From a virus (taxonomy: Duplodnaviria > Heunggongvirae > Uroviricota > Caudoviricetes): a DNA stretch of 5,109 bases. Position numbers and translations under genes: made by a program. This document shows positions 1 through 879 of the stretch, one piece after another (positions within the stretch are counted from its first letter, which is position 1; each line of letters begins with the position of its first letter). The stretch is from IMG/VR virus record IMGVR_UViG_2695420889_000019; one strand, 5' to 3'. Under the pieces are notes generated by a model. It searched no databases and was not told the origin of the DNA. It saw only the letters and a program-made list of their open reading frames with translations.

Positions 1-207
1 TTGCAGAATTTCAGATTCCAGTTCAGCCACCGTGCGGGAACCAGGAGTACCGAGCCCTTTTCTGGCGGCGGTAACCCATTGTCCTAAAGTGCCTTCAGGA
101 AGAGATAATCGGGAAGCGCCTTCACTGATCGAAAGTTGATTTTCAAGAACCGTTCTGACAGCTTCGGCTTTGAACTCTTTAGAGTAACGTTGGGTTTTTC
201 TGCTCAT
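1..207 (-). CDS. IS3-family transposase OrfA (HTH DNA-binding part), N-terminal 69 codons only; the gene continues past the window start
   Basis: Minus-strand ATG at 207-205, preceded by AAGGAG (rc of 214-219) at about 6 nt spacing. Translation MSRKTQRYSKEFKAEAVRTVLENQLSISEGASRLSLPEGTLGQWVTAARKGLGTPGSRTVAELESEILQ has the layout of IS3-family OrfA proteins (basic N-terminus, HTH, then the start of a leucine-zipper-like segment). Open to position 1. Family call is from recollection, not a search. Confidence 0.6.
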   Translation of the reverse strand, partial: MSRKTQRYSKEFKAEAVRTVLENQLSISEGASRLSLPEGTLGQWVTAARKGLGTPGSRTVAELESEILQ

Positions 208-271
208 TATTAGCTCCTTCTGATGCCATTCTATTTCAGGAAGGAGTGTCCGTTAAACTCAGGCTACCTCA
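1..271 (-). mobile_element. End of an IS3-family insertion sequence (terminal inverted repeat plus start of orfA); the rest of the element lies outside the window
   Basis: Read on the minus strand from position 271, the sequence starts 5'-TGAGGTAGCCTGAGTTTAACGGACACTCC, i.e. a 5'-TG terminus as expected for IS3-family ends, about 65 bp upstream of the orfA start. The exact terminus (271, or possibly the CA at 280-281) cannot be fixed without the other end. Confidence 0.5.
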
Positions 272-357
272 GAGATGTTCAAAGTTATTCCACTGTCACC
301 AGGCCATGCCTACGGGATGTTTATGGAACGTTTTAACGAGTTATCGGAGTTACGCAA

Positions 358-879
358 ATGCGCATGAATGTTTTCGAAATGGAAGGGTTTCTTCGCGGGA
401 AATGTGTACCGCGAGATCTGAAAGTGAACGAAACAAATGCTGAGTACCTAGTACGTAAGTTCGACGCGCTTGAAGCTAAATACGAGACGCTGGCGGCGGA
501 GAATGCGCGGCTGAATAAATTTATCGTACAGAGTTGCTATGTGTTTAATGGCGAGCAGGATGAAATATCTGATGCGTATATCTGCGCAGCAGGCGGAGGT
601 ATGCCGCAAATTCCAGCCACCGATGCTTTTCTGGCTGAAATTCGTGCGGAGGCTCGCAACGAGGGAATTAACTATACCGCAAGTCGTCTTGCTGCTGCTT
701 TCAACCACGGATTTATCAATAAGTCTTTACGTGAAGTTTTCGACGTTACGCGCATGATTCTGTCAGCGAAAGAAGAGTTAGCTAATGAACCGCATCCGAT
801 TGATGGCCTGTCCGGTGAATATGCGGAGAAATCCCTTGAAGAATGGGCGGAGCAGATTCGCAAAGGAGGCAACCAGTGA
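358..879 (+). CDS. Lambdoid-prophage early protein, possibly YbcN-family (weak recollection); predicted coiled-coil near the N-terminus
   Basis: 173-codon ORF; GGAG at 346-349 lies 8 nt before ATG 358. An alternative start at ATG 364 (MNVFEMEG...) overlaps the stop of a possible upstream mini-ORF. Its TGA (877-879) overlaps the GTG start of the next gene. My recollection that YbcN-type proteins begin MNVFEMEG is unverified. Confidence 0.7.
   Translation: MRMNVFEMEGFLRGKCVPRDLKVNETNAEYLVRKFDALEAKYETLAAENARLNKFIVQSCYVFNGEQDEISDAYICAAGGGMPQIPATDAFLAEIRAEARNEGINYTASRLAAAFNHGFINKSLREVFDVTRMILSAKEELANEPHPIDGLSGEYAEKSLEEWAEQIRKGGNQ
866..879 (+). repeat. Direct repeat copy 1 of GAGGCAACCAGTGA (RBS plus GTG start plus stop-overlap junction)
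   Basis: Identical 14-mer at 866-879 and 1347-1360, with similar flanks (AAAGGAGGCAACCAGTGAC versus AAAGAGGCAACCAGTGAG). Confidence 0.9.

Follow-up and report, generated by a model that had tools for sequence, protein, structure and literature searches.

At the left edge of a 5,109-nt stretch of DNA from a prophage (the window), an insertion sequence of the IS3 family stops 86 bp short of a run of phage genes, and between the two lies an ORF of 30 codons (MFKVIPLSPGHAYGMFMERFNELSELRKCA; ATG 275 to TGA 365–367). Its frame is open back to 257, where a TAA at 254–256 closes it, and its stop overlaps an ATG at 364 as ATGA. A preliminary description made from the letters alone had noted this ORF correctly, with its open frame and its overlap, and had left two readings for it: the 3' remnant of a gene that the element had interrupted, or a small leader ORF translationally coupled to the gene that follows. 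The question this locus raises is therefore what stood before position 272 when the element was absent, and what the element has done to the genes beyond it. Our answer, to which we give a probability of about 90%, is that IS600 inserted after codon 148 of yfdR, a gene inside the early operon of a CPS-53/e14-like prophage.

The element and the interrupted gene

The junction and its surroundings comprise the following features.

1..271, minus strand: left end of IS600 (IS3 family), from identity to annotated copies, terminus mapping and an HTH_Tnp_1 match
207 down to 1, minus strand: first 69 codons of orfA, with the remainder of the 1264-bp element beyond the window start
208–271, part of 1..271 (minus strand): 64-nt leader in the IS600 left end
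about 243–271, part of 1..271 (minus strand): terminal inverted repeat of the IS600 left end
228..256, minus strand: promoter-like site TTAACG-17-TAGAAT in the IS left end, a match to consensus only
272..274, no strand assigned: GAG, yfdR codon E148, the predicted 3-bp target-site duplication, after the 3-bp duplications at two full IS600 copies
272..367, plus strand: 3' remnant of yfdR, codons 148–178 and TGA, colinear with intact yfdR and with PHROG C-terminal matches
275..367, plus strand: 30-aa ORF that starts at internal Met149 of YfdR and shares the yfdR stop, from the ORF list and alignment
346..349, plus strand: GGAG Shine-Dalgarno-like sequence, read directly from the sequence, 8 nt before ATG 358
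358..879, plus strand: 173-aa gene with a YfdS-like N-terminal 45 aa, from gene calls, PHROG matches and a YfdS alignment, with a 10-nt overlap with the yfdR stop

Window 1–275 is 100% identical to a copy of IS600 in E. coli O26:H11 (L002), labelled 'IS3-like element IS600 family transposase' by PGAP, and shows 98.6% identity to the copy in E. coli O145:H28 RM12581 (L001). The left terminal sequence of IS600, TGAGGTAGCCTGAGTTTAACGGACAC, is the reverse complement of window 246–271, which sets the last base of the element at 271, and identity and terminus mapping together indicate that window 1–271 is the left end of a 1264-bp IS600 with its transposase on the minus strand. The IS strand reads TGAGGTAGCC... 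at the visible end and full IS600 copies close with ...ACACCTCA, giving the termini 5'-TG...CA-3', of which one is in the window. The full copies in L001 and L002 are both 1264 bp long, start TGAGGTAGCCTGAG... and finish ...CCAGTACACCTCA, and have a 3-bp direct repeat on either side, ATG in the former and CTC in the latter. The minus strand of 1–207 encodes an OrfA N-terminus (MSRKTQRYSKEFKAEAV..., 69 residues; Pfam HTH_Tnp_1, E 2e-18). A programmed frameshift is annotated in IS600 copies identical to the window end, the window itself holding only the first 69 codons of orfA. At the level of sequence comparison, the proposal that an IS3-family element ends at 271 is thus confirmed, and the element belongs to IS600.

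Comparison with IS-free relatives, which the preliminary description had proposed as the check, reveals a longer ORF running through position 272 in the frame of the short one, namely the 178-codon yfdR, and the reading as an interrupted gene accordingly stands. Intact yfdR encodes 178 aa and is an HD-domain "5'-deoxynucleotidase" gene found in CPS-53-like prophages. Its 537 nt end at the equivalent of window 367 in the IS-free loci L003, L004, L005, L006 and L008–L014; L012, which is 100% identical to window 270–5109, has the whole gene. The native sequence of an IS-free locus reads without interruption as ...ggcatcccggcaaca GAG atg ttc aaa..., and therefore window 272–274 (GAG) is codon 148 and ATG 275 is the internal Met149. 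When window 1–900 was compared by megablast with 5426 complete E. coli genomes, many matched from 270 onward, with the annotation "yfdR: 5'-deoxynucleotidase" or "HD family hydrolase", and none of the 5426 matched the IS/flank junction. The gene is present in 2970 of these genomes and uninterrupted in 2948 of those 2970, so that it is disrupted in under 1% of its carriers. Neither the right junction (two pattern versions) nor the predicted left junction had a match in GTDB representative genomes or JGI metagenomes.

The encoded peptide points to the same gene. Aligned with intact YfdR, residues 148–178 of the remnant are identical to the proteins of L012 and L003 and identical at 28 of 31 positions to K-12 YfdR. 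Two phage families of deoxyribonucleoside 5'-monophosphate phosphatases, phrog_6402 (E 3e-12) and phrog_318 (E 6e-9), match the 30-aa peptide with their C-terminal ends; NCBI records name the exact 30-aa sequence 'HD family hydrolase, partial', and relatives annotate the gene as yfdR or HD family hydrolase. The 31 residues cut off by the element are nearly invariant among the YfdR alleles aligned, and they align to the conserved C-terminal part of 2gz4, the nearest solved HD-domain protein (E 1.4e-12). The HD motif LMHDA (residues 67–71) lies upstream of the insertion point and the remnant comprises the last 31 codons only. As read here, the remnant does not hold a complete HD domain with the metal-binding H...HD...D, and it is a gene fragment rather than a functional member of the family.

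Six places encode exactly the same 30-aa product, and all six are contigs that start at window position 273 or 275; they carry differing yfdR alleles and differing downstream genes, and the same protein cluster has many other partial lengths. An insertion hot spot, considered on the strength of these exact matches, was rejected, the contig starts being explained by asking for that exact product.

On these sequence comparisons we take the 30-aa ORF to be the leftover of a gene interrupted by the IS, and neither a chance ORF nor a new regulatory element.

Position in the early operon

The gene order in relatives starts with a cro/YdaS-like gene on the opposite strand and a LexA/S24-type repressor gene on the plus strand, followed by variable genes, yfdP, yfdQ and yfdR. 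After yfdR come the 173-aa gene, a class I SAM methyltransferase gene, sometimes a 103-aa ORF, a gene for a Rv2179c-like 3'-5' exonuclease and a PrtN-family gene; the right end is formed by minus-strand cargo genes, a dusA 5' fragment, and host yjbM (DUF2713) and zur. The corresponding features in the window are these.

876..1364, plus strand: class I SAM-dependent (DNA) methyltransferase, 162 aa, from annotation in relatives and Pfam and PHROG matches
1668..2240, plus strand: 3'-5' exonuclease with a Rv2179c-like domain, encoded distally in this operon, from annotation and a Pfam match (E 4e-75)
2280..2558, plus strand: PrtN-family (PyocinActivator) protein, the last plus-strand gene before the prophage end, from annotation and a Pfam match (E 3e-23)
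2606–2779, minus strand: 57-aa ORF, a protein of the cargo slot
2976–3512, minus strand: 178-aa ORF, a protein of the same slot
3656–3760: 5' fragment of dusA (tRNA-dihydrouridine synthase), marking the prophage end

The element thus sits in the middle of the early operon, at least 1.8 kb downstream of the yfdP start. K-12 CPS-53 shares with this prophage the order yfdP-yfdQ-yfdR, a YfdS-type N-terminus in the next gene and a 10-nt overlap between yfdR and that gene. It differs in that yfdR is split by the IS here and the next gene resembles YfdS over the first 45 aa only; the distal genes are a methyltransferase, an exonuclease and a PrtN-like gene here versus yfdT-torI in CPS-53, and the chromosomal site is dusA/zur rather than that of CPS-53. 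Because the relatives and CPS-53 share this core and the overlap with the next gene, the 86 bp at 272–357 are yfdR coding sequence in mid-operon and not a promoter region. The earlier proposal that the element had displaced the native promoter region does not hold on this comparison: any promoter lies upstream of the IS and is cut off rather than displaced. Nor is the 173-aa gene the first gene of the operon, as it had been called; by the gene order of the relatives it is at least the fourth.

PGAP and the gene caller of the sequence collection both start the 173-aa gene at ATG 358, and the homologous yfdS of K-12 is annotated with the same start. The GGAG at 346–349 lies 8 nt before ATG 358, as against 14 nt before ATG 364. 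The true start is hence most likely ATG 358 and not ATG 364, and since the annotated starts and the GGAG spacing favour it, the overlap with the upstream yfdR frame is most likely 10 nt (ATGCGCATGA). The gene had been labelled YbcN-like, a name that we rejected (the best BLASTP match to K-12 YbcN, the DNA base-flipping protein of DLP12, has E = 20); its N-terminal 45 aa are identical to YfdS at 42 of 45 positions (93%), and the remainder matches the phage families phrog_614 and phrog_368 (unknown function). The 358–879 ORF is a mosaic, its N-terminus being of YfdS type and its C-terminal part unrelated and of phage type. In identical relatives PGAP annotates only the first 45 codons of the 173-codon ORF, as a pseudogene fragment 'missing C-terminus'.

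Several further observations concern the genes downstream. The GTG start of the methyltransferase gene overlaps the preceding TGA stop (GTGA, 876–879). A 17-nt motif, AAGGAGGCAACCAGTGA / AAAGAGGCAACCAGTGA, occurs at two successive gene junctions, 863–879 and 1344–1360, and consists of a Shine-Dalgarno-like sequence and a GTG start codon that shares bases with a TGA stop; it may mark a conserved boundary at which gene cassettes of this mosaic region are exchanged. Between the PrtN-like gene and the prophage end, differing minus-strand gene pairs are found across relatives, a YafO-family toxin with a 179-aa protein in some and a SocA_Panacea protein with a partner in others. The window has in this slot the 57-aa and 178-aa proteins, which belong to phrog_2741 and phrog_4350 (unknown function) and for which Pfam and PADLOC gave no match (window 2606–3512). 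The slot looks like a variable site for toxin-antitoxin or defence cargo. With PADLOC, neither the 173-aa and 103-aa proteins nor the cargo proteins of the minus strand gave a match, and no Rfam family matches the window.

At the prophage end, the 96-bp stretch 3657–3752 is repeated with 100% identity at the 5' end of an intact dusA in L007, and for this reason it is likely an attachment-site duplication. An integrase gene was not found at the dusA end of the prophage. Beyond it, the host DUF2713 (yjbM-like) protein (4123–5109, minus strand) has 328 aa, with the Pfam domain on residues 94–328 only, and some relatives have a 235-aa form. An imperfect tandem repeat (2 × 30 nt, 4980–5039) lies within the region encoding the extra N-terminal part.

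The insertion event and its alternatives

On the reading we prefer, IS600, oriented so that its transposase genes lie on the minus strand, transposed into the yfdR coding sequence directly after codon 148. The target is a gene inside the early (pL-like) operon of a prophage whose neighbours are a dusA fragment, yjbM and zur. To the right of the IS, yfdR is reduced to its last 31 codons, in which the internal Met149 makes the 30-aa ORF, and the ATGA and the 10-nt overlap with the next gene are the native yfdR/yfdS-type junction. A simple insertion predicts the left side, which lies outside the window. With a slash marking the boundary of the element, the left junction would read GAG/TGAGGTGT..., the yfdR 5' part stopping at a TGA supplied by the IS terminus (GAG/TGAGGT...). 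The left flank would be ...GGCATCCCGGCAACAGAG/TGAGGTGTACTGGCAAT..., with GAG duplicated and yfdR codons 1–148 followed by TGA; the other IS end would be ...GGCAACAGAG/TGAGGTGTACTGG..., and the far side of IS600 would be ...CCCGGCAACAGAG from yfdR. The truncated 148-aa product would keep the HD motif and lose the conserved C-terminal segment, and it is probably inactive.

IS600 insertions are known to turn genes of E. coli and Shigella into pseudogenes. The closest known case is in E. coli O145:H28 strains RM12581 and RM13514, which have the same 1264-bp element (ends TGAGGT...ACCTCA) in the same target gene of the same prophage at the same chromosomal site, with the downstream 4.84 kb 100% identical to the window. 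In these strains IS600 follows codon 34, in the opposite orientation, versus codon 148 in the window. The RM12581 copy occupies L001 3397–4660 within yfdR, with the target duplication ATG, and RM13514 is annotated in the same way. Because site and orientation differ, the RM12581 insertion is an independent event, and as these sequences read there are two separate IS600 insertions in one 537-nt gene of one prophage lineage. L007 (4752–6010; GCA_000951875.1) shows a different change: a 3' remnant of yfdR, 64 codons long, begins within about 45 bp after an intact dusA and leads into the 173-aa gene and methyltransferase gene described above, most of what precedes mid-yfdR in the prophage having been lost.

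The alternative that survives best is that the 271/272 junction is the endpoint of an IS600-mediated deletion or inversion, so that something other than the yfdR 5' part lies beyond the IS. It would suit the absence of the exact predicted 148-aa truncated YfdR from the protein collection, and the other IS end and the far side are outside the window. RM12581 and RM13514, identical downstream, have their IS600 elsewhere in yfdR and inverted; each of these genomes has about nine further IS600 matches, so that substrates for IS-IS recombination exist; and L007 is a known deletion variant of the prophage. On the other side, the two complete IS600 copies examined are simple insertions with 3-bp duplications. 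Nothing speaks directly against a rearrangement, which we nevertheless consider unlikely.

More doubtful still is the idea that the insertion was selected rather than neutral, with DnaA-binding YfdR lost, the distal early genes, the PrtN-like gene among them, uncoupled through polarity from the SOS-controlled prophage promoter and the prophage locked in place. Were this so, two independent IS600 insertions in yfdR of one prophage lineage (codons 34 and 148) would represent recurrent selection. YfdR has been described as an HD-domain homologue of YfbR with weak nucleotide affinity that binds DnaA, and multicopy yfdQRS or yfdQRT was found to inhibit replication initiation, deletion of the cluster having no effect in that respect (PMC4776307). 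A selective reason to lose yfdR is thus conceivable, but the gene is disrupted in under 1% of carrier genomes, and we judge the probability to be low. The PrtN-like gene occupies the position of the excision factor TorI in CPS-53. That it encodes an excision factor is an idea drawn from gene position only, the protein having no alignment to TorI and no solved relative.

The preliminary description had also suggested that the element could drive the operon from an outward promoter. We regard it as quite improbable that the IS end provides an outward or hybrid promoter from which the 173-aa gene and the distal genes would be expressed constitutively and independently of the prophage repressor. 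Elements of the IS3 family can switch on adjacent genes by means of an outward -35 in one terminal repeat, and that -35 sits in the right end. This general precedent is what favours the idea, and nothing found in the present analysis adds to it. Here the right end faces away from the operon; the end that faces it is the left one, and its promoter-like site TTAACG-17-TAGAAT is oriented inward on the opposite strand, in the direction of orfA and not of the prophage operon. This site is the only promoter-like one in window 1–1000 and is present in the full L002 copy as well. A consensus scan, which weak or non-canonical promoters could escape, found no plus-strand sigma-70-like site in window 1–1000 or in the full IS600 copy in the same orientation (L002 1950–3350). 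Since the promoter-like site of the IS faces away, the IS is unlikely to drive the operon.

That the 30-aa ORF works as a leader or upstream ORF, coupled by the overlap to initiation of the 173-aa gene, is scarcely credible: the overlap with the next start codon is real and such stop/start junctions recur along the operon (GTGA 876–879, for example), but in IS-free relatives the frame is part of the 178-codon gene with no separate ORF, its sequence is the C-terminus of an enzyme family, ATG 275 is the internal Met149 with no GGAG- or AGGAG-type Shine-Dalgarno sequence before it on reading the sequence, and the 173-aa gene has its own GGAG 8 nt before ATG 358. Coupled leader peptides and upstream ORFs have in common with it a short ORF whose stop overlaps the next start; unlike them, it is not conserved as an ORF in its own right, lacks a ribosome-binding site and arose by truncation of a longer gene. 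Of the two readings first offered for this ORF, the remnant is thus upheld and the leader, which exists only through the insertion, is not.

Consequences for the prophage

If IS600 is simply inserted in yfdR, transcripts started at the prophage promoter would arrive at the 173-aa gene and the distal genes only after crossing 1264 bp of antisense IS, most of which is untranslated. The IS strand that they read has short ORFs only, and two weak terminator-like sites, a number at or below chance expectation. Because of this crossing, expression of the 173-aa gene, the methyltransferase, the exonuclease and the PrtN-like gene on induction is probably reduced by polarity. Silencing of the operon, which the preliminary description had envisaged, is in this form plausible for the distal genes.

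The event described here is ordinary IS600 insertional pseudogenisation of a prophage gene, a case of routine prophage decay that is already known and not novel. Beyond annotation it matters little: the 30-aa ORF becomes a yfdR pseudogene fragment, the 271 bp upstream become the left end of IS600, and the downstream genes are placed midway along a prophage early operon rather than at its start. The prophage in this strain is probably without YfdR activity, and its distal early genes (methyltransferase, exonuclease and PrtN-like protein) may be poorly expressed on induction. Together, the loss of YfdR and poor distal expression would add one step of decay to a prophage that in related strains shows another IS600 insertion and a large deletion.
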